Assembly: GCA_035380845.1 (NCBI GenBank)
Contig: DAOSXZ010000001.1
Coordinates: 1 to 37,725, forward strand
Source of the DNA: Bacteroidales bacterium
Lineage (GTDB): Bacteria; Bacteroidota; Bacteroidia; Bacteroidales; UBA932
Direction: 5' to 3'
DNA: 37,725 bases
Shown here: positions 1 through 15,856 of the stretch, piece by piece
How the letters are laid out: every line of letters starts with the position of its first letter
Numbering within the stretch: the stretch's first letter is position 1
Translations under genes and position numbers: made by a program
Notes under the pieces: generated by a model
Database searches by the model: none
What the model was told of the DNA's origin: nothing
Seen by the model: the letters and a program-made list of their open reading frames with translations, nothing else

Positions 1-908
1 CTGAAAGATTCCGCAAAAGTATCATAAGTCCCCGTCAGCTTTAAACTCAGTGAAACAAACAAGCTTCCTAAAAGTAAAGCAGAAATAAAATAGCGTGTTA
101 CCGGAGATTTGAATAACGAGGTAGATCTTTTGGCTACCAGTAAGAAGATCATTCCGAAATGCAACGCAGACAAGCACATAAAAACCATTATTATGGCTTC
201 AATCAGCTGGCTGTCGTATGCTGCTATACTGAGATTTTTAGTACTGAAGCCTCCTGTTGCAATGGTAGCAAAAGAATGACAAACGGCATCAAAAAAATCC
301 ATACCTGCCAAAGTCAGGCAAAATACTTCCAGGAACGTCAGGCCAAAATATATAATAGCTATTACACGAACTGTTTCTTTTGCCCTGAAACGAAAATAAT
401 CCTGTGAAAGAGCACTGATCTCTATCTTGGATAATTTCAACCGGATGGAGCTGACTTCCGGTAATATCAGCAACATAAAAATGACGACTCCCATACCACC
501 GATCCAATGGGTGGATGCCCGCCAGAAAAGCAATGATTTCGGTAAAATTTCAACGTCAGTTAAAATTGTACCACCTGAAGTAGTATAACCGCTTACGCTT
601 TCATACCATGCGTTAATTAACGTAAACTCGCCTCCCCACAATAAATAAGGCAGCATACCGAAAAGGCACGATATTGCCCATGAAAGAACCGCGATGACAT
701 ATCCCTCACGGGTAGCTACTTCCCCGCTACTCCGAACAAATATATACGGAAAAGACCCTATTGTCGCCGTAATGATGGCCGTAAGAAGCAATGGAGAAAA
801 CCCGGTATCAAATCCATTTATTGCCGAGACAAAGACGGCAATGAACATGAACAGGGCATTGACCAGGAGAACCAGGCCCATATTCCTTGCTATCACATGG
901 ATCCTCAT
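1..908 (-). CDS. trkH: TrkH/KtrB-family K+ uptake permease, first ~302 codons only (ORF runs off the left window edge)
   Basis: Absent from the supplied ORF track because it is open-ended. Manual minus-strand translation from ATG 908-906 is uninterrupted to position 1: MRIHVIARNMGLVLLVNALFMFI...ESVSGYTTSGGTILTD...THWIGGMGVVIFMLLILP...CHSFATIATGGFSTKN.... It is multi-TM with the repeated pore-loop-like (S/T)GG..T motifs typical of TrkH. The ATG overlaps the upstream gene's TGA (ATGA at 905-908). Confidence 0.85.
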   Translation of the reverse strand, partial: MRIHVIARNMGLVLLVNALFMFIAVFVSAINGFDTGFSPLLLTAIITATIGSFPYIFVRSSGEVATREGYVIAVLSWAISCLFGMLPYLLWGGEFTLINAWYESVSGYTTSGGTILTDVEILPKSLLFWRASTHWIGGMGVVIFMLLILPEVSSIRLKLSKIEISALSQDYFRFRAKETVRVIAIIYFGLTFLEVFCLTLAGMDFFDAVCHSFATIATGGFSTKNLSIAAYDSQLIEAIIMVFMCLSALHFGMIFLLVAKRSTSLFKSPVTRYFISALLLGSLFVSLSLKLTGTYDTFAESF

Positions 909-1669
909 AGCTTATTGTGTTCGTCGCAAAGTTTAGTTATGGATTCGTTCAATTCCGCCAATTCGTCATCGGAAGGCAGTTTGACCTGGTATTTTGTTTT
1001 AAACAACAAGGTGTTTTTGACACCCAAACGAATTTGCCTGAGCGGCAGGATCAGGTATATGCGAATAAAATAGGACAACAGGAACAACAAAAGAATGCTG
1101 CTTGCCACTGCTATGACACCAGGCATCAGGCTTCGGTAAAATCCGTCCTGTATCAATTGCGTGTTCTGATGGAGTAATTCCTGTTCCAGAGAGATCAGAT
1201 CCTGTACGTATTTACGCAGCCTGGAATAAGTAGGATACAGTCTCTGAGAATACCATCCCCTTCTCTGAACGTATTCGTTTTCCTGCCAGACAGACCGGGC
1301 TTCGTTCAGTATTTGCATATAAGCGGCATAAGCGTAAACAATGGAATCGGTCAATGCCATTTCCTGATCAGTTGTCAATGTAGTCCTTGTTGCCTGCAGA
1401 TAATTGTTAAAACGTGCATCATCATATATGGATTCCATTTCCAATAAGGAATCCGTTGTTATTCCAATCTGGCTGAGCAATGCAAAAATATTCTGATCGG
1501 TTACTTCCAGCAATTGGCTGGATATATTGATGTTTTCCACGTTGACTGAAATAACGTCTCCTACGGAACGGCGGATCCTTCCGATTTCAAAGATACTGAC
1601 CAGGCTGGATAAGAAAAGAACAAAGCCTACTACCAGAAAACCCAGATTAATCTTATTGCTTATTCCCAT
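905..1669 (-). CDS. Sensor-like membrane protein: MCP-type four-helix-bundle ectodomain flanked by two TM helices, short HAMP-like tail, no output domain
   Basis: 254 aa, ATG at 1669-1667. TM1 is INLGFLVVGFVLFLSSLVSIF, followed by a ~150 aa helical segment. TM2 is LMPGVIAVASSILLLFLLSYFIRIYLILPL, followed by PLRQIRLGV...DDELAELNESITKL (HAMP-like), then stop. Its stop overlaps the trkH start, and its start overlaps the SDR 3' end by 17 nt. Confidence 0.6.
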   Translation of the reverse strand: MGISNKINLGFLVVGFVLFLSSLVSIFEIGRIRRSVGDVISVNVENINISSQLLEVTDQNIFALLSQIGITTDSLLEMESIYDDARFNNYLQATRTTLTTDQEMALTDSIVYAYAAYMQILNEARSVWQENEYVQRRGWYSQRLYPTYSRLRKYVQDLISLEQELLHQNTQLIQDGFYRSLMPGVIAVASSILLLFLLSYFIRIYLILPLRQIRLGVKNTLLFKTKYQVKLPSDDELAELNESITKLCDEHNKL

Positions 1670-2504
1670 AAGTGTTCAAAGTTATAAAAAAACTCCATAC
1701 GCTGTCCAGAGACTCTTTGGCAGACAGGTAAGAAGGTAATCTTACCTGTTTCTTGTCTTTGAATAATTTCCCGGAGATTCCTTCCACAGAAGCATCCAGC
1801 GCCAGAAATACGGTAGTAGAAGCACCCTTGGGAGCTTGTCTTATAACGGGCCTGAAAAACAAGTCTGTAAGAGGGTCAATCCAATTATGCATTTTAATTA
1901 TGGGTGTATTTACTATCCCGGGATCTACCATATTAACACTAATTCCTTCATCTTTCCATAAAGAGGCCATGCGTATGGAACACAAGGCAAAAGCAAGCTT
2001 GGAACAGGCATAACGTTCAAAACGGTTGAATTTGGGAGATGGCATAGGGAAATAAACCGGGATTCCCCCCTGTCTGATCATTATAGATACGGTATTGATC
2101 ACACGGCTGCCTTTTCCCAACAACGGTTTGATAAGCCATGTAAATGTTGCCGGACCCAGGCAGTTGACCACATTATGCATTTCATATCCTTCGGGGGTAA
2201 TTTCCGGTTTCCATCCCAGCATTCCTGCATTGTTGATCAGAATATCCAGGTGATCCTCTCTGTCTTTTAGAACAAGGGCAGCCCGGCGGACAGAATCCAG
2301 GGATGAAAGATCCATTTCAAGGACGGAGACTGTTTCTGCACCATATTCATCAACCAGGGAACGGCAAAATTGCATACCCTCACTTCCGGGACGACAAGAT
2401 AAAATGACCTTGCAACCGGATTGAATCAATTCATGACTGATAACGCGGCCTAAACCTCCGTTAGCCCCTGTCACAAGGGCTATCTTCCGGTTATTTGAGT
2501 TCAT
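1653..2504 (-). CDS. Short-chain dehydrogenase/reductase (SDR); candidate hydroxysteroid (3-oxo/3-hydroxy bile acid) dehydrogenase by context
   Basis: 283 aa, ATG at 2504-2502. Motifs: Rossmann TGANGGLGR (TGxxxGxG), NNAG, and catalytic YACSK (YxxxK). Its start is overlapped by 14 nt of the upstream OYE gene. Confidence 0.85.
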   Translation of the reverse strand: MNSNNRKIALVTGANGGLGRVISHELIQSGCKVILSCRPGSEGMQFCRSLVDEYGAETVSVLEMDLSSLDSVRRAALVLKDREDHLDILINNAGMLGWKPEITPEGYEMHNVVNCLGPATFTWLIKPLLGKGSRVINTVSIMIRQGGIPVYFPMPSPKFNRFERYACSKLAFALCSIRMASLWKDEGISVNMVDPGIVNTPIIKMHNWIDPLTDLFFRPVIRQAPKGASTTVFLALDASVEGISGKLFKDKKQVRLPSYLSAKESLDSVWSFFITLNTYGNKQ

Positions 2505-3720
2505 TCAGCAATTTTTTGGGAATACCATCCAGATGCTGGTGACATGCCATATCTATACTGTACATCCTGGCAATGCAATAATTGGTATGCTTGCAACTAC
2601 TGGAGAAAGCGCATCCGGGATCTTTCTCTTCCGCTTCTTTCATATGTTTGACAAAGGCTGGATCATTGATCAGGGGTCGCGCCAGTCCAATAAATTCAAA
2701 ACCTCCGTCCAGAGCCTGTTCTATGACAGAACGCGAGAACATACCTCCCAGGCATACCAGCGGTATACGGATGTGCTTCCTGAATATTCGTGCATCTTCC
2801 AGAAAATATCCTTCCTTGAAGGGAACCGGGGGAATCATCCATTTTCCTATCATGCCTACTCCAATCTTTACATAATTCCAGGGCATGTAATACGTCAAAG
2901 TTTTAATGGGCATGGCACCGCGCATAACATACATGGGCGCCCGGCTTACATAACCGCCGCTAAGCACCAGTGCATGCGCTCCGGCTTTTTCCAATAGTGC
3001 GGCCACCTGCAGGGATTCATCCAATTCCATGCCACCCCTGAATCCATCCCGCATATTCATTTTCACCAACACAGCCATTTTTCGCCGGGCTGCCACCTCC
3101 ATTACTTCTTCCATAACCTGAGAAGTAAATCTCAACCGGTTGACGAAACTGCCTCCGTATTCGTCTTTTCTTTTGTTCAGCCAGGTAGACATGAATTGAC
3201 TCAAAAGGTATCCGTGACCGGCGTGAATCTCTACCGCATCAAATCCGGATTCGTATGCCAGTTCTGTAGCCTTTCCAAAATCTTTTACCATATCAAGTAT
3301 TTCGGATTTTTTCATAGCCCTGACAAACGTCGGAGAATACATATTAAATCCGCTGCTTGCCGATACAGGTGTGCAACCGCAAATATTCCGGTGACTCATG
3401 TTGCCGCAATGGCCCATCTGTATGGATGCTGCGGCTCCTTCTTTATGAATACCATCTGTGAGATGCTTTAACCCTGGAACGATTTCAGGACGCATCCACA
3501 ACTGTGTTGGGAAAGAAAGTCCACTCCTGTTAACAGCTGCATAAGCGACTGTAGTCATTCCAATCTCACCCGCTGCAACAGAAGTATGATAGCGGTAAAG
3601 GGCATCTGAAGGTCCGTTAGCTATACACATCCCTTCAAAAGCAGCCGCGCGGATGGTACGGTTGCGTAAAGTAAGAGGGCCTATGGACGATGGTGTGAAT
3701 AATAGAGAATCGTGGATCAT
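2491..3720 (-). CDS. Old-Yellow-Enzyme-family NADH:flavin oxidoreductase (ene-reductase); candidate 3-oxo-delta4-steroid 5beta-reductase by context
   Basis: 409 aa. OYE TIM-barrel signatures: LTLRNRTIRAAAFEG, HKEGAAASIQMGHCG, FDAVEIHAGHGYLLSQFMS, GLARPLINDPAFV. C-terminal four-Cys stretch CAFSSSCKHTNYCIARMYSIDMAC. There is no C-terminal FAD/NAD(P) domain. The ATG at 3720 lies 3 nt after the 5alpha-reductase stop. Confidence 0.85.
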   Translation of the reverse strand: MIHDSLLFTPSSIGPLTLRNRTIRAAAFEGMCIANGPSDALYRYHTSVAAGEIGMTTVAYAAVNRSGLSFPTQLWMRPEIVPGLKHLTDGIHKEGAAASIQMGHCGNMSHRNICGCTPVSASSGFNMYSPTFVRAMKKSEILDMVKDFGKATELAYESGFDAVEIHAGHGYLLSQFMSTWLNKRKDEYGGSFVNRLRFTSQVMEEVMEVAARRKMAVLVKMNMRDGFRGGMELDESLQVAALLEKAGAHALVLSGGYVSRAPMYVMRGAMPIKTLTYYMPWNYVKIGVGMIGKWMIPPVPFKEGYFLEDARIFRKHIRIPLVCLGGMFSRSVIEQALDGGFEFIGLARPLINDPAFVKHMKEAEEKDPGCAFSSSCKHTNYCIARMYSIDMACHQHLDGIPKKLLNELK

Positions 3721-3723
3721 ATT

Positions 3724-4497
3724 TTAATATATAAAAGGGAAAATACGTTTTCGGGGATCCCTTGTCATTTCTGTAGAAAACTCATTTTCATATCTTTTAT
3801 ATATGGCGTGAGCCCTGGGAACCAGGTTGGCAAAAGTCCACAAAAAGAAAACAAATCCGCTCAGGGACCAGGTCAAAACGGCAAAACCCATCCATTCAAT
3901 GATTTCGCCAAAATAATTGGCACATGTTACATACCGGAATAATCCCTTATCCGGTAAATAATGGTTTGTATCTCCTTCATGTCTGAGGTTTCGAATAATT
4001 CCGTCCGAACGGATATTGATCACAAGTCCTGTTATGAACAATGCGGTTCCTGCAAGAAAACGGGGATCTCCCAACCAGGATTCCGTATACATTTCCGGAG
4101 GTGCCAGGAAAAAGATCCATTGACCTTGCATAAATGCGTTCGCCAGATTAAAGACAATACCCATAAGCATGATCAGAACAGGCATCCGACTTTTTCCCTT
4201 AATTAACCACGGAAAAATAAATGCACGCTGAAGATAGTGAGTCTGGAAAAGCAGGAAAAAAACAAAAGGTATAAGTTCCCATTTCCTGGGAGACATAACC
4301 CAAAACCAGCACATGGCAATAAAAACCGGCGCTTCCATGATCATCCACGCCCATTTGTTGGATAAGGTTATCCCCCAGCTTTTGTCAAAAAGAATACCGT
4401 AACCGGCTTTCACATGATACAATGCTATGAACACAACTATTGCAATAGCCGCCATAATCAATAAAAACAGGTGAAAGGTATTCAGGGAAATATTCAT
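3724..4497 (-). CDS. 3-oxo-5-alpha-steroid 4-dehydrogenase (steroid 5alpha-reductase, SRD5A family) integral membrane enzyme
   Basis: 257 aa polytopic membrane protein. The C-terminus GLFRYVTCANYFGEIIEWMGFAVLTWSLSGFVFFLWTFANLVPRAHAIYKRYENEF aligns by eye with the conserved SRD5A1 C-terminal block (..GLFEYVTAANYFGEIMEW.G..L.....). ATG at 4497-4495. Confidence 0.9.
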   Translation of the reverse strand: MNISLNTFHLFLLIMAAIAIVVFIALYHVKAGYGILFDKSWGITLSNKWAWMIMEAPVFIAMCWFWVMSPRKWELIPFVFFLLFQTHYLQRAFIFPWLIKGKSRMPVLIMLMGIVFNLANAFMQGQWIFFLAPPEMYTESWLGDPRFLAGTALFITGLVINIRSDGIIRNLRHEGDTNHYLPDKGLFRYVTCANYFGEIIEWMGFAVLTWSLSGFVFFLWTFANLVPRAHAIYKRYENEFSTEMTRDPRKRIFPFIY

Positions 4498-4503
4498 GGC
4501 TCA

Positions 4504-4511
4504 CAAATGTA
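4504..4511 (-). promoter_or_regulatory. Bacteroidetes -7 promoter box TACATTTG (TAnnTTTG) for the 5alpha-reductase operon
   Basis: Plus-strand caaatgta at 4504-4511 reads TACATTTG on the minus strand. It lies 6 nt upstream of the ATG at 4497. Confidence 0.45.
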
Positions 4512-4522
4512 ATAAAATTTTG

Positions 4523-4530
4523 TATTTTTG
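4523..4530 (+). promoter_or_regulatory. -7 promoter box TATTTTTG for the thioredoxin-like lipoprotein gene
   Basis: TATTTTTG matches TAnnTTTG and lies 4 nt upstream of the ATG at 4535. Confidence 0.4.
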
Positions 4531-4534
4531 TTTT

Positions 4535-5515
4535 ATGAAGCTTCTTTTCCTCCGTCTTGTATTAATATCTGCGGCAATCATCACGACGTCCTGCATCCGG
4601 GGAAACAAAGAGAAGGAGAGCAAACCACTGATATTCCAGCCGCCTTCCGTACCGGTAGTAATTGGATCACAGGAAGAAGCCATTCACTACCAAACAGTTC
4701 ATTACTGGGATCATTTTCCTTTTGAGGATTCCCTGTGTATCATACAAGAAGGATTTGCGGACCAGGTTTTTACGGGATATGCAAACTTACTCCAACAAGC
4801 TGACATAAAAGATGCGCGGGAGAGTATCAGGCGCATGATGATAAAAGCAGGTACGGCGGCCGAAGATCCGGCGGCAAGAAAAAAGATCCTTTTAAAATTT
4901 TTTAGTTTAACGGAATATTTCTTCTATCATCCGAATTCTCCTTACAGGAACGATGACATCCTGATTCCGGCTTTGGAAGTGGTGGTTGCCGCTCCTTTAC
5001 TGGATTCCATGGAAATACAACGCCCCTTGTATATGCTGGACATCGTTCGCAAAAACCGACCGGGAGATATAGCCGGCGATTTTTCTTTTATCCGTGCAGT
5101 CAGGAATTTCCCTTTTACCGATGACCCGTCCAATATTGAAAATTTACATGATCTGAAATCAGATTTCATCCTGATCATGTTCATCAACCTGGGATGTCCT
5201 TCCTGCAACCAGGTTAAGGAAGAGATCCTTCATTCTGAACCTGTCAAAAAGATGGTTGAAGAAAAAAGACTTACCATTCTTACTGTTTATCCGGACAAAG
5301 ATATGGAAGGCTGGCAGAAACATTTACCGGAACTCCCTGCTGAATGGATCCACAGTTACAACCCGGAAGGTGAGATCAGGAACGGATCCATATACGATCT
5401 GAAAGCCATTCCCACATTGTATCTTCTGGATAAGAACAAACGTGTCCTGGTAAAAGACGCCCTGTCTGTTAAGCAATTGGAAGATGCCATCAGGCAACAG
5501 GCATATTTTTTGTAG
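4535..5515 (+). CDS. Thioredoxin-fold (TlpA/AhpC-TSA-like) lipoprotein with DUF5106-like N-terminal domain
   Basis: I prefer the ATG at 4535 (MKLLFLRLVLISAAIITTSC, lipobox Cys) over the track's 4496 start. The CxxC motif GCPSC sits in FINLGCPSCNQ, followed by IPTLYLLD (the thioredoxin-fold cis-Pro region). Confidence 0.7.
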   Translation: MKLLFLRLVLISAAIITTSCIRGNKEKESKPLIFQPPSVPVVIGSQEEAIHYQTVHYWDHFPFEDSLCIIQEGFADQVFTGYANLLQQADIKDARESIRRMMIKAGTAAEDPAARKKILLKFFSLTEYFFYHPNSPYRNDDILIPALEVVVAAPLLDSMEIQRPLYMLDIVRKNRPGDIAGDFSFIRAVRNFPFTDDPSNIENLHDLKSDFILIMFINLGCPSCNQVKEEILHSEPVKKMVEEKRLTILTVYPDKDMEGWQKHLPELPAEWIHSYNPEGEIRNGSIYDLKAIPTLYLLDKNKRVLVKDALSVKQLEDAIRQQAYFL

Positions 5516-5543
5516 CTTTGCGCCTCATCTACTCCGGACTAAC

Positions 5544-8084
5544 ATGAACCAACGGGTAACCATACTGATACTTGCCATACTTTTCTTCCTTCCCGGAAAA
5601 ACTGCAGGCCAGACAGCTGACACGACCGGCCAGATTTCACGCGACACTATGGAAATCGCGCTGCCTGACTCATTGACTATGATCTATCTGGACAGTTTGC
5701 GTATTCCCTATACCGAGGCCCATCGTGTTCCGACACTTGACTCCATGCTGCGTATCACATCAGATGAAAAAGGATTGTTTTACAAATTAGACAGCCTGGG
5801 GCTTCTTATTCTGGATGAAAAAGGGAATCCTGTGGTAGATTCCCTGAAAAGTTTTTCTGCCAGAACGTTATCCCTGATGTCGTTTATGGATAGCCTGGGT
5901 TTGCCACTCAAAGATACAATACGAATTCCGGTACTTGATTCCGCGGGCAGACAGATTCGGGACACCCTGGGATTCTTTTACCAGACAGACAGTACCGGTT
6001 TGATCAAACTGGACAGCCTGGGATCGTTCCTGGTAGATTCACTGGCAACTTACACCACAAAAGAACTCAGGAAAATGGCCCGCCAAAAAAGAAAGGAGGA
6101 AAAAGCCATAGCAGATTCCATATGGAACAGTACGTTTCATCCACTTGAAACATATGTTATACCGGACACCCTGTTATACAGGAGGGTTATTTCCTGGACT
6201 AATGATGAATATTTTAATAATCTGAAATTTAAGCAGATAGACACCAATATCAATAGCAACTTTCACGATTATGCCTACCTGGAAAAGGACGTGGGAGCTG
6301 TTTCCCTGGGGACTGCAGGATCTCCTGCCCTCCCGTTCAACTTCTTTATCCGGGAGACGAAAGAACGTTTTGATTTCTGGAGCCCCGGTATGTATGAAGC
6401 GTATGACAGGAACACCCTTCCGTTCTACAACACAAAATCGCCTTTTACGGTGATGTCCTATACCGGGACGTTGTTCGCTAATAAGGAAACCGAAGAAATG
6501 AATGTAGGCTTTCTTCACACTCAGAATCTTTCACCTTCAACCAACGTACAGTTTTTTTACCAGAAGAAAGGTACAGCCGGATTATTGGAAAATGAGAGTA
6601 CCAATACAAGGACTTTGGCCGTAACCGCGGATTACCTGGGAAAGAAATACATCGTGCACGGAGGCTACATTCGGAATTCCCTGCAAAAAGGTGAAAACGG
6701 AGGTATTCAGGATGACAGCTTCATACTGGACACCCTGGTAGAAGCTCGTACTATCCCGGTTAATCTTTCCAATGCGTCATCCCTGCTTAAAAGCAGTCAG
6801 CTTTTCATCACCCAGAGTTACGGAATTCCTATCAATCTGTTCAAAAGAGACTCTCTGGACACCGGAGAAGGGACCATGATGATTTTAGGACACTCGGGAG
6901 AATGGACCACAATGACACGCAACTATAATGATGAAATAGGCCTGGCAGACAGGGCCGGACGCGCCTTCTACTACGATCGGTTCTTTATGCATCCGACCCG
7001 TACGGCAGATTCTTTACGAACCATGATCGTGGATAACCGGTTTTTCCTGCGCTTGCAACCATGGTCCAACACGGCTATCGTTTCCAAGATAGAAGGAGGC
7101 GTGGGCTATGAACTCATTTCCAATTATTGCTTTAATCCGGATTTCTATACGGAAGGGACTTCCAACCTATGGCAGAATAATATGTACGTATATGCCGGAG
7201 CCTCGGGTATGTTCAAAAAATATTTCCGGTGGAACGCCCTTGGGAAACTGGACTATGCCGGTTATTATGCAGGAGACGTATCTCTGGATGCCAACGTCCG
7301 TTTTTCTTTTTATCCCATGGAATCCGGGATCCATCTTACAGGCAGATTCCTTTTCACCAGGCAGACACCGGATTGGTATACACAGCATTATTATTCCAAC
7401 CATTATATCTGGAACAATGATTTCCAGAAGACAAACCAAACCAGGATAGAAGCCCGGCTTTCCATACCCGGTTGGAAAACTGAAGCCACATTTTCTTATG
7501 GATTACTGGGAAACCGTATCTATTACGATACACTGGGAACAGTAAGACAGTCAGAAGACCTGGTTAACGTCATGACTGCCACCTTGACTAAGAATTTCAG
7601 TTTTTGGTATGTCAGGCTTGATCACAGACTCTTATTCCAGGTATCTTCCAGGCAAGACATTGTACCGTTACCCACTTTCAGTGCCAACCTGAGGTATTAC
7701 CTGGAAATACCCATCGTTAAAGATGTAATGACAGCACAAATTGGGGCCGATATTACTTTTCACACAGCTTACCATATGGAATCCTATAATCCCGCGCTGG
7801 GTGTATTCCATCTGCAAAACGAAAAGAAATACGGCAACACTCCCTATATAGACGCATTTATAAATATGAAATGGAAACGGGCAACCATTTTTGTAAAATA
7901 TGTCAATGCCGCCCAGGGATGGCCAAATAGTGATTATTTTGCAGCGCCGCATTACATTCGTCCACAACGCGTATTTAAACTGGGAATGACGTGGCCGTTT
8001 TACATTAAACCCGGAAAGACAGCTGCTCAGGCTTCTTCTTCCGAAGGATCTCCCGTGAGAGCAGCAGGAAACACCGCCCGCTGA
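5544..8084 (+). CDS. Large outer-membrane beta-barrel protein (Bacteroidetes 'putative porin'-type) with N-terminal LDSxG repeat region
   Basis: I prefer the ATG at 5544 (MNQRVTILILAILFFLPGKTAGQ signal peptide). A ~130 aa repeat region is followed by ~650 aa rich in alternating aromatic/hydrophilic beta-strand patterns, ending in WPF before a low-complexity tail. The family assignment is by resemblance only. Confidence 0.5.
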   Translation: MNQRVTILILAILFFLPGKTAGQTADTTGQISRDTMEIALPDSLTMIYLDSLRIPYTEAHRVPTLDSMLRITSDEKGLFYKLDSLGLLILDEKGNPVVDSLKSFSARTLSLMSFMDSLGLPLKDTIRIPVLDSAGRQIRDTLGFFYQTDSTGLIKLDSLGSFLVDSLATYTTKELRKMARQKRKEEKAIADSIWNSTFHPLETYVIPDTLLYRRVISWTNDEYFNNLKFKQIDTNINSNFHDYAYLEKDVGAVSLGTAGSPALPFNFFIRETKERFDFWSPGMYEAYDRNTLPFYNTKSPFTVMSYTGTLFANKETEEMNVGFLHTQNLSPSTNVQFFYQKKGTAGLLENESTNTRTLAVTADYLGKKYIVHGGYIRNSLQKGENGGIQDDSFILDTLVEARTIPVNLSNASSLLKSSQLFITQSYGIPINLFKRDSLDTGEGTMMILGHSGEWTTMTRNYNDEIGLADRAGRAFYYDRFFMHPTRTADSLRTMIVDNRFFLRLQPWSNTAIVSKIEGGVGYELISNYCFNPDFYTEGTSNLWQNNMYVYAGASGMFKKYFRWNALGKLDYAGYYAGDVSLDANVRFSFYPMESGIHLTGRFLFTRQTPDWYTQHYYSNHYIWNNDFQKTNQTRIEARLSIPGWKTEATFSYGLLGNRIYYDTLGTVRQSEDLVNVMTATLTKNFSFWYVRLDHRLLFQVSSRQDIVPLPTFSANLRYYLEIPIVKDVMTAQIGADITFHTAYHMESYNPALGVFHLQNEKKYGNTPYIDAFINMKWKRATIFVKYVNAAQGWPNSDYFAAPHYIRPQRVFKLGMTWPFYIKPGKTAAQASSSEGSPVRAAGNTAR

Positions 8085-9064
8085 TGTCCAGAAAAAAATT
8101 TCTCATAGCGCTGCTGGCAGCTTTTGTCATATCGTTCCTGTATAAGGAATACTATTCACGGGTGACGCACTCTTCATCCGATATGAGAACAAAAAGAGAA
8201 ATCATACAGGCACAAAACGATACGCTTAGAAGTACCATATACCTTCCCTCTCACGCCGGGACGCGGGTTGGATATCATTACGAGATCATGAGACGTTTTT
8301 CGCAATCCCATGATCTTTCTTTAAAATACATACCCGCAAACGATACGGTTTCGGTATGGGAGCTGCTTACAGAAGATAAAACAGATATTCTGGCCGTGAA
8401 CATTATTCGTGATCCCATTCCAAAATCTCTGACAGGTAAATTATGCATTACACCAAAAATCACACCATTGGGTGAAGTCTGGGTCATGATGAAAAGCAGG
8501 TGTCCCTGGCATTTGAACCTGGTACACTGGCTCATTTTATTTAGACAAAATCCGCAACATTCCCGATTTCAAAGCCGTTTTCTTCCCTCTTCCCCCAACA
8601 GATGTCCTTACGATTCGTTGCTAAGAGCAGTAAGCAGGCCCCTGGGATGGGACTGGCGTATCCTGAGAGCAGTCATGTACCAGGAATCAAAATACAGGAT
8701 GAATGCCCGGTCAGCTGCAGGTGCTATGGGTTTGATGCAAATGAAAGAATCTACTGCCAGGGATATGAAAGTCAAGGATCTTTATAATCCTGAAGATAAT
8801 GTTAAAGGAGCTGTACGGTATTTTGCATATCTGAAAAGAAATATGCATCTGACGCATTTGCCGGAAGAAGAAGAGATCCATTTTGTGCTGGCTGCATACA
8901 ATGCAGGAATGACTCGTATTCAAAAAGACAGGGAACAGGCTGCCACAGAGGGCAAGAATCCGGATAGCTGGTCAGAAGTGGCTCCTTACACGCCTTCACA
9001 AACTCAAAATTATGTAGAAACAATAAAAAAGAGGTACCTGGACTGGGTTACCTCATCCGAATAG
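8084..9064 (+). CDS. Lytic murein transglycosylase (SLT domain, MltF-like with reduced N-terminal solute-binding-like domain)
   Basis: SLT catalytic block MYQESKYRMNARSAAGAMGLMQM...AYNAG. N-terminal TM anchor. The ATG at 8084 shares one nt with the upstream TGA (TGATG). Confidence 0.8.
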   Translation: MSRKKFLIALLAAFVISFLYKEYYSRVTHSSSDMRTKREIIQAQNDTLRSTIYLPSHAGTRVGYHYEIMRRFSQSHDLSLKYIPANDTVSVWELLTEDKTDILAVNIIRDPIPKSLTGKLCITPKITPLGEVWVMMKSRCPWHLNLVHWLILFRQNPQHSRFQSRFLPSSPNRCPYDSLLRAVSRPLGWDWRILRAVMYQESKYRMNARSAAGAMGLMQMKESTARDMKVKDLYNPEDNVKGAVRYFAYLKRNMHLTHLPEEEEIHFVLAAYNAGMTRIQKDREQAATEGKNPDSWSEVAPYTPSQTQNYVETIKKRYLDWVTSSE

Positions 9065-12710: not shown

Positions 12711-14201
12711 ATGGAAAAAAACATCTCTCGAAGAAATTTCTTACAAAAAAGCGCCATGGCCACAGCCGGTGCTATTGTTGCTTCTTCTCCGCTGATGGCT
12801 AAAGTTCCTCTGGATTCACAGAAGAAAAAGAAAACAGCAGCTACCGACAAGCTCAACATTGCCGGAATAGGTATTGGAGGAAGAGGAGGCGGAGTTATCC
12901 GTGAACTGAGTTCTGAAAACATTGTCGCTTTGTGCGATGTTGACTGGAAATACGCTGCCGGACAATTTCAAACATACCCGAATGCGAAAAAATATAAAGA
13001 TTTTCGCAAATTGTTTGATGAAATGGGGAACAAGATCGATGCCGTTGTTGTTGGTACGGCCGATCATACCCATGCCGTTATCGCCGCACAGGCACTTTCC
13101 ATGGGAAAACATGTTTATTGTGAGAAACCCCTTACACATACCGTATACGAAACCAGATTGCTGACCCGTCTGGCCGCAAAGCATAAAGTAGCAACTCAAA
13201 TGGGAAACCAGGGTGCTTCAGGCGCCGGGGTAAGACAAATATGTGAAGCTATATGGTCCGGCATGATAGGAGAAGTAACCAAAGTGGAAGCCTTTACGGA
13301 CCGACCCATCTGGCCCCAAGGGCTGGAAACTCCCACGGAAGCCCATACCCCTCATCCCGACCTGGACTGGGACCTTTTCATTGGACCTGCCCCCTACCGT
13401 CCTTACAACGAAATCTACCACCCCTGGAATTGGCGCGGATGGTGGGATTTCGGAACCGGTGCCCTGGGAGATATGGCCTGCCATATCCTTCAACCCGTGG
13501 TTAAAGCATTGAATCTGAAATCTCCGGTTGCCGTTCAGGGCAGCTCCACTTCCCTGATGACAGATTGTGCCCCTAACGCACAGATAGCCAAATTTGTTTT
13601 CCCGGCACGTGACAATATGCCCAAAGTAGGTATGCCACGCGTGGAAGTTACCTGGTACGATGGAGGACTCATTCCCGAATATCCGAAAGGATGGCCTGCA
13701 GGACGCAATATGAATGACAGCGGCGGTGCGGTTATTTTCCACGGAACAAAGGACACTCTAATCTGCGGATGTTACGGAGTAAACCCCTGGCTGATCTCTG
13801 GCAAAGAAATACCTACCCCTTCCATGACAAGGGAAGTTCCTGAAAACAATCACTATACGGATTTTATACGTGCCTGCAAGGAAAGTCCTGAAAGCCGGAT
13901 AAAGACTGCTTCTGATTTTTCCGAGGCCGGACCTCTGAATGAAATGGTTGTCATGGGTGTCCTGGCTGTGCGTCTGCAAGGTTTGAACCGTGAACTCCTG
14001 TGGGACGGAGATGCCATGAAATTCACCAACATTTCTCCCAACGACAGCCTTAGAATGAAGGTTAAGGACGGCTTCTCCATTAAAGACGGTCACCCCACCT
14101 TCAACAATGAATATACAGATCCCATCAACGCCCTGGAATTTTCAAACGAATTGATCCGCCATACATACAGGGCCGGTTATTCTTTGCCTGAAATGCCGTA
14201 A
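12711..14201 (+). CDS. Gfo/Idh/MocA-family oxidoreductase with twin-arginine (TAT) signal
   Basis: 496 aa. TAT motif SRRNFLQKSAMATAGAIVA. Rossmann motif NIAGIGIGGRGG. The EKP motif of the family appears in VYCEKPLTH. Confidence 0.85.
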   Translation: MEKNISRRNFLQKSAMATAGAIVASSPLMAKVPLDSQKKKKTAATDKLNIAGIGIGGRGGGVIRELSSENIVALCDVDWKYAAGQFQTYPNAKKYKDFRKLFDEMGNKIDAVVVGTADHTHAVIAAQALSMGKHVYCEKPLTHTVYETRLLTRLAAKHKVATQMGNQGASGAGVRQICEAIWSGMIGEVTKVEAFTDRPIWPQGLETPTEAHTPHPDLDWDLFIGPAPYRPYNEIYHPWNWRGWWDFGTGALGDMACHILQPVVKALNLKSPVAVQGSSTSLMTDCAPNAQIAKFVFPARDNMPKVGMPRVEVTWYDGGLIPEYPKGWPAGRNMNDSGGAVIFHGTKDTLICGCYGVNPWLISGKEIPTPSMTREVPENNHYTDFIRACKESPESRIKTASDFSEAGPLNEMVVMGVLAVRLQGLNRELLWDGDAMKFTNISPNDSLRMKVKDGFSIKDGHPTFNNEYTDPINALEFSNELIRHTYRAGYSLPEMP

Positions 14202-14219
14202 ACTTAAACTCAACATAAT

Positions 14220-14984
14220 ATGAAAAAACTTTTAATAATCCCCATTCTCATGACTGCGTTAATCGCAAGCTCTTGTGCTTCCTGTAATAACAACAAGAAG
14301 GAAGTACAGGAAGAAGACCCTAACGTTGTTATTCTCTTTGACGGAGAAACGTTTGAAGGCTGGCGTGCCTACAACGGCACCGATATTCCCGGAGCATGGA
14401 CCATAGAAGAAGGCGCCATCAAGATCAACGGTTCCGGCCGCGGTGAGGCCGGTGCTGAAAACGGCGGTGACATTGTTTTTGACTGCAAATTCGGAAACTT
14501 TGAACTTACTTTTGAATGGAAAGTAGCAAAAGGCTCCAACTCGGGTATTTTTTACCTGGCACAGGAAGTTCCCGGAGAGCCCATTTACATCTCGGCTCCG
14601 GAATACCAGGTTCTGGACAACGCAAATCATCCCGATGCCATGCTGGGTATAGACGGCAACCGCCAATCTGCTTCCCTTTACGACATGATCCCTGCCAAAC
14701 CGCAGAACTCCAAACCTTTTGGCGAGTGGAACACAGGGAAAATCCTGGTCTATAAAGGCACCGTGGCTCATTTCCAAAACGGAGAACCGGTTCTTGAATA
14801 CCATTTGTGGACTCCCCAATGGCAGGAAATGCTGGACAACAGCAAATTCAGCAAAGAAAAATGGCCTGTCGCTTACGATCTGTTACTGAATTGCGGTGGT
14901 GAAGAAAAAGCAGGATACATTGGTTTGCAGGATCATGGCGATGATGTATGGTTCAGAAACATCAAAGTAAAAATCCTTGACTAA
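14220..14984 (+). CDS. DUF1080 / 3-keto-disaccharide hydrolase family lipoprotein
   Basis: 254 aa. Lipobox LIASSC. Family-typical blocks W.....W.IEEGAI, F.L.FEWK...GSNSGIFY, EYQVLDN, and C-terminal GYIGLQDHGDDVWFRNIKVK. Confidence 0.8.
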   Translation: MKKLLIIPILMTALIASSCASCNNNKKEVQEEDPNVVILFDGETFEGWRAYNGTDIPGAWTIEEGAIKINGSGRGEAGAENGGDIVFDCKFGNFELTFEWKVAKGSNSGIFYLAQEVPGEPIYISAPEYQVLDNANHPDAMLGIDGNRQSASLYDMIPAKPQNSKPFGEWNTGKILVYKGTVAHFQNGEPVLEYHLWTPQWQEMLDNSKFSKEKWPVAYDLLLNCGGEEKAGYIGLQDHGDDVWFRNIKVKILD

Positions 14985-15856
14985 TGGTACGCAATTTTTT
15001 GACAACAATTATGGTGGCAACGGTTTCTGCTTTCAGCCTGGTATCCTGTGCTACAGAACCCGTACAAAAAGAGATCGGTCTTCAATTGTACTCCATCAGG
15101 GAACAGATTAATGAAGATCTTAACACTTCACTGGATGCCGTAGCCGAAGCCGGCTATACATTTGTGGAAATGGCCGGTTACAATGCCGCGGAAGGTACTT
15201 TCTACGGCATGTCAGGCAATGCTTTTACGGAGCTTTGTAATAGCAAAGGACTGGAAGTGATATCCTCACATATTAACGGACCGGATCCGAATGTCACTCC
15301 ATGGGAAGAATGTATGGCCTGGTGGGACAAAGCCATTGCAGATCACCTGTCTACAGGTGTTCTGTACATTGTTCAGCCCTCCATGTGGAAAAGTGCTTAC
15401 GAATCCGTTGAAGGACTTTCCAGGTATTGTGAATTGTTCAATGCAGTTGGTGAAAAATGCAACAACGCAGGCATCCGTTTTGGATACCATAATCATGCAA
15501 ATGAGTTCACGACTGTTTTTGATGATGTGGTCCTGTACGACTATATGCTTCAGAATACAGATCCGGAAAAGGTTTTCTTCCAGATTGATGTATATTGGAG
15601 CCAGGTAGGCGGAGCACCTGCTGTCGAATACCTGGAAAAATATCCCGGAAGGTATGACCTGTGGCACGTTAAAGATGACAAGGAGATTGGCGCTTCCGGA
15701 AAGATCGATTTCCGCGCCATCTATGAAAAAGCAGAAATGTCGGGGCTTAAATATGCCATTGTGGAACAGGAAGCATTTGATTTGGCTCCTTTTGAAAGTA
15801 TTAAAGCTTCATATGACTATTTGAACAATGCGGACTATGTAAACGTTTCGTATTAA
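14984..15856 (+). CDS. Xylose-isomerase-like TIM-barrel (sugar phosphate isomerase/epimerase family) lipoprotein
   Basis: 290 aa. Lipobox SLVSC. IGLQLYSIRE..., GYHNHANEF, and WHVKD/VEQE metal-ligand-type blocks of the AP_endonuc_2 fold. The ATG shares one nt with the upstream TAA (TAATG). Confidence 0.8.
   Translation: MVRNFLTTIMVATVSAFSLVSCATEPVQKEIGLQLYSIREQINEDLNTSLDAVAEAGYTFVEMAGYNAAEGTFYGMSGNAFTELCNSKGLEVISSHINGPDPNVTPWEECMAWWDKAIADHLSTGVLYIVQPSMWKSAYESVEGLSRYCELFNAVGEKCNNAGIRFGYHNHANEFTTVFDDVVLYDYMLQNTDPEKVFFQIDVYWSQVGGAPAVEYLEKYPGRYDLWHVKDDKEIGASGKIDFRAIYEKAEMSGLKYAIVEQEAFDLAPFESIKASYDYLNNADYVNVSY

Follow-up and report, generated by a model that had tools for sequence, protein, structure and literature searches.

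Three nearly fused genes near the start of a contig from an uncultured member of the Bacteroidales raise the question of whether a gut bacterium's pathway to the bile acid isoallolithocholic acid (isoalloLCA), as proposed in a preliminary description, is encoded here, or a related steroid cassette of another habitat. The window, by which we mean the whole stretch of DNA analysed, comprises 37,725 nt of contig DAOSXZ010000001.1 (assembly GCA_035380845.1). The genes encode an SRD5A-type steroid 5-alpha-reductase (5AR), a flavoprotein of the old yellow enzyme (OYE) type and a short-chain dehydrogenase/reductase (SDR). They are a real steroid A-ring cassette, and the family-level assignment made at the outset is correct. 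From sequence comparison we consider it reasonably probable that the cassette is homologous to the Bacteroidales cluster of 5AR, 5-beta-reductase (5BR) and hydroxysteroid dehydrogenase (HSDH) genes and is carried by an uncultured Bacteroidales lineage with relatives in digesters. As such it represents no new system but a divergent member, apparently not from the gut, of a cluster that has been described before.

Gene families and arrangement

The published cluster comprises Bacdor_03091/90/89 in B. dorei, Parmer_04016/17/18 in P. merdae and BVU_1964/65/66 in B. vulgatus (Li et al. 2021, bioRxiv 10.1101/2021.01.08.425963). In the same study Bacdor_03090 converted 3-oxolithocholic acid (3-oxoLCA) to 3-oxo-delta4-LCA, Bacdor_03091 converted 3-oxo-delta4-LCA to 3-oxoalloLCA, and purified Bacdor_03089 yielded isoalloLCA with NADH. 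Deletion of Parmer_04016-18 abolished 3-oxo-delta4-LCA, 3-oxoalloLCA and isoalloLCA, and across the tested gut strains the presence of 5AR predicted isoalloLCA production. A review summarises the centenarian study (Sato et al. 2021) in the same terms as the preprint results (PMC10382948), and a culture-collection survey found adjacent 5AR and 5BR genes in most gut Bacteroidales.

The preliminary description had likened the trio in the window to this cluster, and the likeness holds for both gene order and homology. The order 5AR-OYE-SDR is that of all three published examples, and the 5AR and OYE proteins are 56-64% identical to those of gut Bacteroidales contigs. As had been noted, the three minus-strand genes are almost fused: 3 nt (3721-3723) separate the first two, and the second and third share 14 nt (2491-2504). 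Both figures agree exactly with the list of open reading frames. Each protein matches the expected family: 5AR residues 104-257 match PF02544 Steroid_dh (E=2.3e-41, 141.7 bits against a cut-off of 22.6), the OYE-type protein matches PF00724 Oxidored_FMN (E=6.8e-50) and the SDR matches PF00106 adh_short (E=4.8e-26). The motifs quoted earlier were likewise found, namely ANYFGEIIEW in 5AR and, in the SDR, TGxxxGxG and YxxxK, which read TGANGGLG and YACSK. The coordinates given for the operon end too soon, since a further co-directional gene at 905-1669, the trkH gene that follows it and the 37-nt divergent gap ahead of 5AR had all been overlooked.

Conservation, relatives and habitat

A scan of genome contigs with the window 5AR returned 25 loci. 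Eleven Bacteroidales metagenome-assembled genomes (MAGs; L001-L009, L012 and L016) carry a 5AR that is 74-97% identical to that of the window. Ten of the eleven keep the three genes and the co-directional gene that follows them, which encodes a 4HB_MCP_1 protein (4HB), on one strand, and genes for an SLT transglycosylase, Porin_10 and a DUF5106-thioredoxin protein on the other. Of 5AR, OYE and SDR, L012 (6001-6893) retains just fragments, close to the end of a contig. The 5AR-OYE-SDR order with its 3-nt and overlapping junctions is kept in L001-L009, L016, L029-L032 and L035, and the exact OYE protein of the window is found on 19 metagenome contigs with the same layout and TrkH next. Because gene order and junction geometry recur in 11 related MAG loci and in several metagenome contigs, the arrangement is not due to chance.

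Adjacency of 5AR and OYE is common to the gut-type contigs L010, L011 and L026-L028, around which the gene content varies. Contigs L026-L028 (57% GC; the SDR cluster includes Candidatus Caccoplasma) encode a 5AR (63% identity to the window protein), an OYE (64%) and a 285-aa SDR (39%), and L010, with an OYE cluster named Alistipes, encodes a 5AR (58%), an OYE (56%) and an unrelated SDR of 268 aa. Three loci have no OYE: L033 (Parabacteroides pacaensis), with 5AR and a 281-aa SDR; L034, with 5AR and a 274-aa SDR; and L036 (5244-7486), a low-coverage contig from the broader lineage of the window, which reads 5AR-SDR-4HB-TrkH. Because arrangements vary across the gut-type contigs, some lacking OYE, the stable core is 5AR plus an SDR, with OYE as an optional third member, and the 5AR and SDR pair appears to be a general prokaryotic module. 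L010 was considered as a proxy for Bacteroides and not used; all names in the 90%-identity cluster to which its OYE belongs are Alistipes sp., and the label of this MAG ('uncultured Bacteroides sp.') may be wrong.

The cassette had also been described as gut-bacterial, which its relatives do not bear out. All relatives at or above 74% are uncultured Bacteroidales MAGs, and those that can be traced come from biogas plants or anaerobic digesters. Among them, 'Rikenellaceae bacterium DTU002' is a biogas-reactor bin (PMC4736482), and 'ADurb.Bin' bins appear in the anaerobic-digester literature.

The 5-alpha-reductase

In this and all other comparisons the gut proteins of P. pacaensis, Alistipes, Coprobacter and Caccoplasma stand as proxies for the characterised enzymes. 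A neighbour-joining tree (Kimura distances, 200 bootstraps) that included 30 Bacteroidales 5AR sequences placed all 30, the window protein among them, in one monophyletic group (200/200 bootstraps). Within it the window 5AR groups with P0009, P0011, P0013, P0018/L034 and P0019 (176/200). Bacteroidales 5ARs are 53-66% identical to each other and the window protein is 57-65% identical to them, whereas other prokaryotic homologues, the bacterial PbSRD5A and human SRD5A2 all lie at 33-45%. On the possibility, raised in the preliminary description, that the proteins fall outside the characterised clades, the answer is divided: the window 5AR shares an orthologous family with the gut proxies, but belongs to a sister sub-clade. 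What stands of the isoalloLCA proposal as a whole are the families, the gene order and the 5AR clade; 'gut' is not supported, and neither is the remark that an SRD5A enzyme in a bacterial operon is unusual in itself. Bacterial SRD5A proteins are not unusual, because 1931 protein clusters match the window 5AR at E<=0.001. Homologues also occur in Cytophagales, Saprospiraceae, SAR86 and one archaeal MAG, and SRD5A-like genes had previously been found widespread in Bacteroidota (PMC10382948).

The assignment to the steroid reductases is strengthened by structure-based comparison. The window 5AR aligns near full-length with PbSRD5A (PDB 7C83; E=1.8e-49, residues 11-256 covered) and human SRD5A2 (PDB 7BW1; E=5.8e-35, residues 19-257), and only weakly with a very-long-chain enoyl-CoA reductase structure (TECR; E=4.6e-9). 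An alignment of 18 5AR sequences has 28 invariant columns, which include E55, Y88 and R228, the equivalents of SRD5A2 E57, Y91 and R227; the equivalent of SRD5A2 R171 is present as R172. In SRD5A2, E57 and Y91 form the catalytic pair on the C3 carbonyl, and R171 and R227 contact NADPH (PMC7591894).

Distant SRD5A homologues (35-45%) in SAR86, a Methanobacteriota MAG, Crocinitomicaceae and another Bacteroidales MAG adjoin extended 3Beta_HSD/epimerase-family SDRs, and a Cytophagales homologue adjoins a retinol dehydrogenase (RDH)-like SDR (distant loci: L018 6747-7745, L021 4964-5941, L023 5039-6004, L013 2807-3799 and L014 6739-7596).

The OYE-type protein

The OYE-type protein is 74% identical to its counterpart in L035 and 56-64% identical to the OYEs that adjoin gut 5ARs. 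Its relation to the larger flavoenzymes is confined to the N-terminal barrel. The BaiCD model is matched over its positions 4-259 of 642 only (E=5e-45), the mycofactocin OYE_2 and bilirubin reductase long-form models match only through their first ~250-260 positions, and the scores of all curated two-domain models are far under their cut-offs. The FadH structure 1PS9 (2,4-dienoyl-CoA reductase) is matched in its N-terminal FMN TIM barrel (E=5.3e-27), and by alignment the protein terminates, at residue 409, where the FAD/NAD(P)H module of E. coli FadH starts. The sequence HAGHGY lies at residues 166-171, and Cys105, in GHCGN, is also invariant.

A cysteine motif, Cx5Cx5Cx10C-H (residues 370-394), follows the barrel, and within it the invariant C376, C382 and C393 align with the FadH 4Fe-4S ligands C338, C342 and C354. 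Every OYE orthologue has a fourth cysteine within this segment, its position shifting. We infer a putative FMN/Fe-S protein which, lacking an NAD(P)H domain, would have to exchange electrons with an external partner.

The short-chain dehydrogenase

The SDR carries TGANGGLG at residues 12-19, NNAG at 91-94 and YACSK at 165-169, and its catalytic Ser was assigned by eye in NTVSIM. Its best NCBIfam matches are PRK06196/PRK06197, under their cut-offs; beyond Bacteroidales, the named proteins closest to it are RDH11-14-like ones from animals (30-34% over ~90% of the length). NADP(H)-using SDRs typically have a basic residue after beta-2, and Arg38 in this position suggests that NADP(H) is used. The protein is predicted to be an NADP(H)-dependent 3-oxo/3-hydroxysteroid oxidoreductase.

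Two unrelated SDR types adjoin Bacteroidales 5ARs, and the window SDR is 39-48% identical to those beside 5AR in L026, L033 and L034. An attempt to assign Bacdor_03089 to one of the types by comparing reported His-tagged masses with computed ones was rejected as ambiguous: 31.7 kDa fits either a tagged SDR of the 268-aa type or an untagged one of the 281-285-aa type, and the other two masses fit neither scheme consistently. No NCBIfam equivalog model was found for 5AR, OYE, the window SDR or either SDR type. The labels '3beta-HSDH' and 'isoalloLCA' are not established for this cassette, as 3-alpha and 3-beta activity cannot be read from sequence.

Proposed function and alternatives

The most likely function of the cassette is isomerisation of a 3-oxo-5-beta steroid to the 5-alpha form followed by 3-keto reduction, with reactions, cofactors and substrate all predicted. 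The OYE-type FMN/Fe-S protein would desaturate a 3-oxo-5-beta-steroid to the 3-oxo-delta4 enone, or catalyse the reverse. With NADPH, the membrane SRD5A would then add hydride at C5 on the alpha face, E55 and Y88 polarising the C3 carbonyl, and release a flat 3-oxo-5-alpha steroid, whose 3-oxo group the RDH-like SDR would turn into a 3-hydroxyl, NADPH being the probable cofactor. The net result would be a cis to trans flip of the A/B ring junction together with 3-keto reduction. Candidate substrates are 3-oxo bile acids that arrive with faecal input, or else neutral 3-oxosteroids.

Several observations weigh against this reading. OYE is dispensable in L033, L034 and L036, so that the three genes are no obligate unit, and in the OYE-type protein itself the position of the fourth FadH ligand is a Ser, with another Cys 6 residues upstream. 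The window SDR is 24% identical to the SDR of the Alistipes-type cluster in L010. The sub-clade of the window 5AR is distinct from that of Parabacteroides, Alistipes, Coprobacter, Caccoplasma and Aphodosoma (176/200), and because it stands apart from these named gut genera its substrate range may differ. Other bile-acid genes, including a bile salt hydrolase or a further HSDH, are absent from the 37.7-kb window.

Taken literally, the original proposal would make this a gut bacterium's isoalloLCA pathway, in which 5AR makes 3-oxoalloLCA from 3-oxo-delta4-LCA, the OYE-type protein acts as the bile-acid 5BR and the SDR, as a 3-beta-HSDH, yields isoalloLCA. The gene order shared with Bacdor_03091-89 and Parmer_04016-18 and the 56-64% identity of 5AR and OYE to gut clusters favour it, as does the value of 5AR as a predictor of isoalloLCA production in tested gut strains (bioRxiv 10.1101/2021.01.08.425963). 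We nevertheless think it rather unlikely in this form: the habitat of the closest 5AR relatives, where traceable, is the digester or biogas plant and not that of a gut commensal, these relatives form a separate sub-clade, the window SDR is only 24% identical to that of one gut cluster type and 39-40% to that of the other, with its stereospecificity unreadable from sequence, and neither bile salt hydrolase nor a second HSDH accompanies it. Sewage- or manure-fed digesters contain bile acids, and a bile-acid substrate is plausible for the favoured cassette because digesters receive faecal matter. On the sequences at hand, neutral stanones are equally plausible, given the environmental lineage, the 5-alpha-stanols and stanones known from the environment (PMC5217961) and the distant SRD5A homologues beside 3Beta_HSD-family SDRs. 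A cassette dedicated to the same chemistry on neutral sterol-derived ketones would take cholest-4-en-3-one or sitostenone to the 5-alpha-stanone and then the 5-alpha-stanol, its OYE-type protein would interconvert 5-beta-stanones (coprostanone) with the enone, and it would add to stanol formation in anoxic sludge. This we regard as improbable, although the digester habitat of the relatives is in keeping with it, 5-alpha-stanols and stanones are products of environmental microbial sterol transformation (PMC5217961), the SDR subfamily acts, by the names of its matches, on hydrophobic neutral substrates in animals, and the pairing of distant non-host SRD5A homologues with 3Beta_HSD-family or RDH-like SDRs suggests a general sterol/steroid module. 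The only biochemistry of the clade concerns bile acids, however, and a pathway beginning with sterols would require a 3-beta-hydroxy-delta5 dehydrogenase/isomerase, which the window lacks.

A non-steroid substrate would have the SRD5A-fold enzyme reduce a double bond in some endogenous or other lipid, as the polyprenol reductase SRD5A3 and the enoyl-CoA reductase TECR do, with OYE and SDR in a different lipid or xenobiotic pathway. PF02544 does include non-steroid reductases, a weak match to the very-long-chain enoyl-CoA reductase was obtained, and the cassette sits amid housekeeping genes, adjoining an outer-membrane porin and lipoprotein block. Such a substrate is nonetheless most improbable, because the SRD5A1/2-type matches (1.8e-49 and 5.8e-35) far exceed that to TECR (4.6e-9) and the Glu/Tyr pair that binds the C3 carbonyl is conserved; orthologues of the same clade act on steroids, and the neighbouring OYE and SDR genes are the ones that 3-oxosteroid chemistry would call for. 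At the other end of the range, and as a speculation to which we attach a low probability, the cassette could, instead of serving a bile-acid pathway in this lineage, be part of a widespread prokaryotic module of SRD5A and a 3-keto/3-hydroxy SDR that hydrogenates sterol-derived enones in anoxic non-host settings (digesters, sediments, ocean), with an Fe-S-only ene-reductase connecting 5-beta with 5-alpha pools by way of an external electron carrier of low potential. If true, this would give the microbial formation of 5-alpha-stanols and stanones, long observed, a genetic basis.

Should the A-ring cassette we favour be active, A/B-ring isomerisation by Bacteroidales would not be limited to host-associated species but would also take place in engineered anaerobic systems that receive faecal steroids. 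Such isomerisation yields 'flat' allo-steroids, for example the antimicrobial and immunomodulatory isoalloLCA, and an active cassette would matter for what becomes of bile acids, sterols and steroid hormones in sludge, as well as for the use of 5-alpha/5-beta steroid ratios as faecal markers. Substrate ranges could also be compared with the help of the divergent enzymes of the cassette, with a 5AR at 57-65%, a different SDR type and a barrel-only putative Fe-S flavoprotein. As a discovery of gene content it is incremental.

Candidate promoter and neighbouring genes

The start of 5AR lies 37 nt from a divergent DUF5106 gene with a conserved start at 4535, the gap being 4498-4534. In this gap the box TACATTTG stands 6 nt upstream of the 5AR ATG, and the window and 9 related loci share it without change; it reads TACCTTTG in L035, whose flanks have diverged, so that the pattern TAnnTTTG is kept in 11/11 aligned loci. 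TAnnTTTG is the Bacteroidetes -7 promoter consensus, and the cassette is probably transcribed from this conserved box directly upstream of 5AR. A plus-strand box, TATTTTTG, was read in the window only. The position of the two boxes suggests that the 5AR and DUF5106 transcripts are both nearly leaderless. A sigma-70 promoter scan was discarded, as it gave fewer sites than shuffles and is uninformative for Bacteroidetes.

Table 1 Features of the cassette and its flanks in the window
Feature	Position	Strand	Product or basis
SRD5A-type 5-alpha-reductase (5AR)	3724-4497	-	257 aa; PF02544
OYE/FMN-barrel protein, counterpart of the gut '5BR' (3-oxo-5-beta-steroid delta4-dehydrogenase/reductase)	2491-3720	-	409 aa; PF00724
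Classical SDR, retinol-dehydrogenase-11..14-like subfamily	1653-2504	-	283 aa; PF00106
4HB_MCP_1 sensor-like membrane protein without output domain	905-1669	-	254 aa; PF12729
TrkH-family K+ transporter gene, N-terminal 302 codons, continues past window start	1-908	-	translation; PF02386
Candidate Bacteroidetes-type -7 promoter box TACATTTG (TAnnTTTG)	4504-4511	-	read from sequence
Second TAnnTTTG box TATTTTTG	4523-4530	+	4 nt ahead of DUF5106 ATG at 4535

On its downstream side the cassette meets the 4HB gene, which overlaps the SDR gene by 17 nt and encodes a protein matching PF12729 4HB_MCP_1 (E=6.4e-8); the start of trkH, at 908, in turn overlaps the 4HB stop codon by 4 nt (ATGA). In the identical contigs L029-L032 this position carries a match to PF02386 TrkH. 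The 4HB family is small, with 21 protein clusters in a large database, and in every context retrieved TrkH follows 4HB, translationally coupled to it through the 4-nt overlap (including L035 7001-9210 and L037 306-2548). In L037 a 36%-identical 4HB homologue keeps TrkH and is preceded by the end of an LpxB-like gene, not by an SDR. Because L037 keeps the pair without the SDR, 4HB-trkH is read as a separate unit that the steroid cassette abuts, with 4HB predicted to be paired functionally with trkH, and the idea that 4HB is the steroid sensor of the cassette was rejected on the same ground. The 4HB protein may serve the K+ transporter as a partner or regulator specific to this lineage. Where downstream genes were inspected (L035, and L036-L037 in part), none adjoining 4HB-TrkH was a TrkA gene. 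One 4HB homologue has a weak HAMP match (E=0.012).

The 4HB gene is probably co-transcribed with the SDR. Across 905-4497 no minus-strand terminator-like site was found at the gene junctions, and two weak matches (5-6 bp stem) lie inside the OYE and 4HB genes. Taken together with the 17-nt overlap, this suggests that transcription may read through into the 4HB-trkH pair.

On the divergent side, a block encoding a DUF5106-thioredoxin-like lipoprotein, Porin_10 and an SLT transglycosylase (4496-9064, plus strand) stays syntenic with the cassette in every relative, including L035 and L036, where 5AR identity is down to 35-70%, with no functional link between block and cassette evident. The remaining window is ordinary chromosome, with UvrA, UvrB, RelA/SpoT, YceG, a MiaB-like protein and one tRNA. 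At 12711-15856 (plus strand) co-directional genes for a GFO_IDH_MocA oxidoreductase, a 3-keto-disaccharide hydrolase family protein and a xylose-isomerase-like TIM-barrel protein resemble a sugar-processing cluster of the 3-keto-glycoside type.

Comparison with known systems

With the published isoalloLCA cluster the cassette shares the three families, gene order, co-directional tight packing and a 5AR clade with gut representatives, as well as a short barrel-only OYE (~405-416 aa) that adjoins 5AR on the same strand. It differs in belonging to a lineage known only from MAGs seemingly of digester or biogas origin and placed in a sister sub-clade, and in that its SDR, one of two existing types, is possibly not orthologous to the purified 3-beta-HSDH. 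Another difference is the 4HB-trkH pair, which the window cassette adjoins and overlaps and which the gut loci do not have.

Compared with human SRD5A2 (7BW1) and PbSRD5A (7C83), the 5AR is alike in length (~255 aa), in near full-length alignment and in keeping the catalytic Glu/Tyr and the NADPH-contacting Arg, but it is only 35-38% identical to them and is encoded in an operon with an ene-reductase and an SDR. The OYE-type protein resembles the Fe-S flavoenzymes FadH, BaiCD and BaiH in its N-terminal FMN TIM barrel and in having a Cys motif at the site of the FadH 4Fe-4S ligands. Unlike them it is without the entire C-terminal FAD/NAD(P)H module (409 aa as opposed to 642-672), spaces its cysteines Cx5Cx5Cx10C instead of Cx2Cx3Cx11C and has an insertion of ~35 residues in the barrel. 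The SDR shares the classical motifs and the basic residue after beta-2 with animal RDH 11-14-like SDRs (SDR7C; PRK06196/PRK06197), whereas it is bacterial and operon-encoded, scores below the curated subfamily cut-offs and has as its presumed substrate a 3-oxosteroid, not a retinoid.

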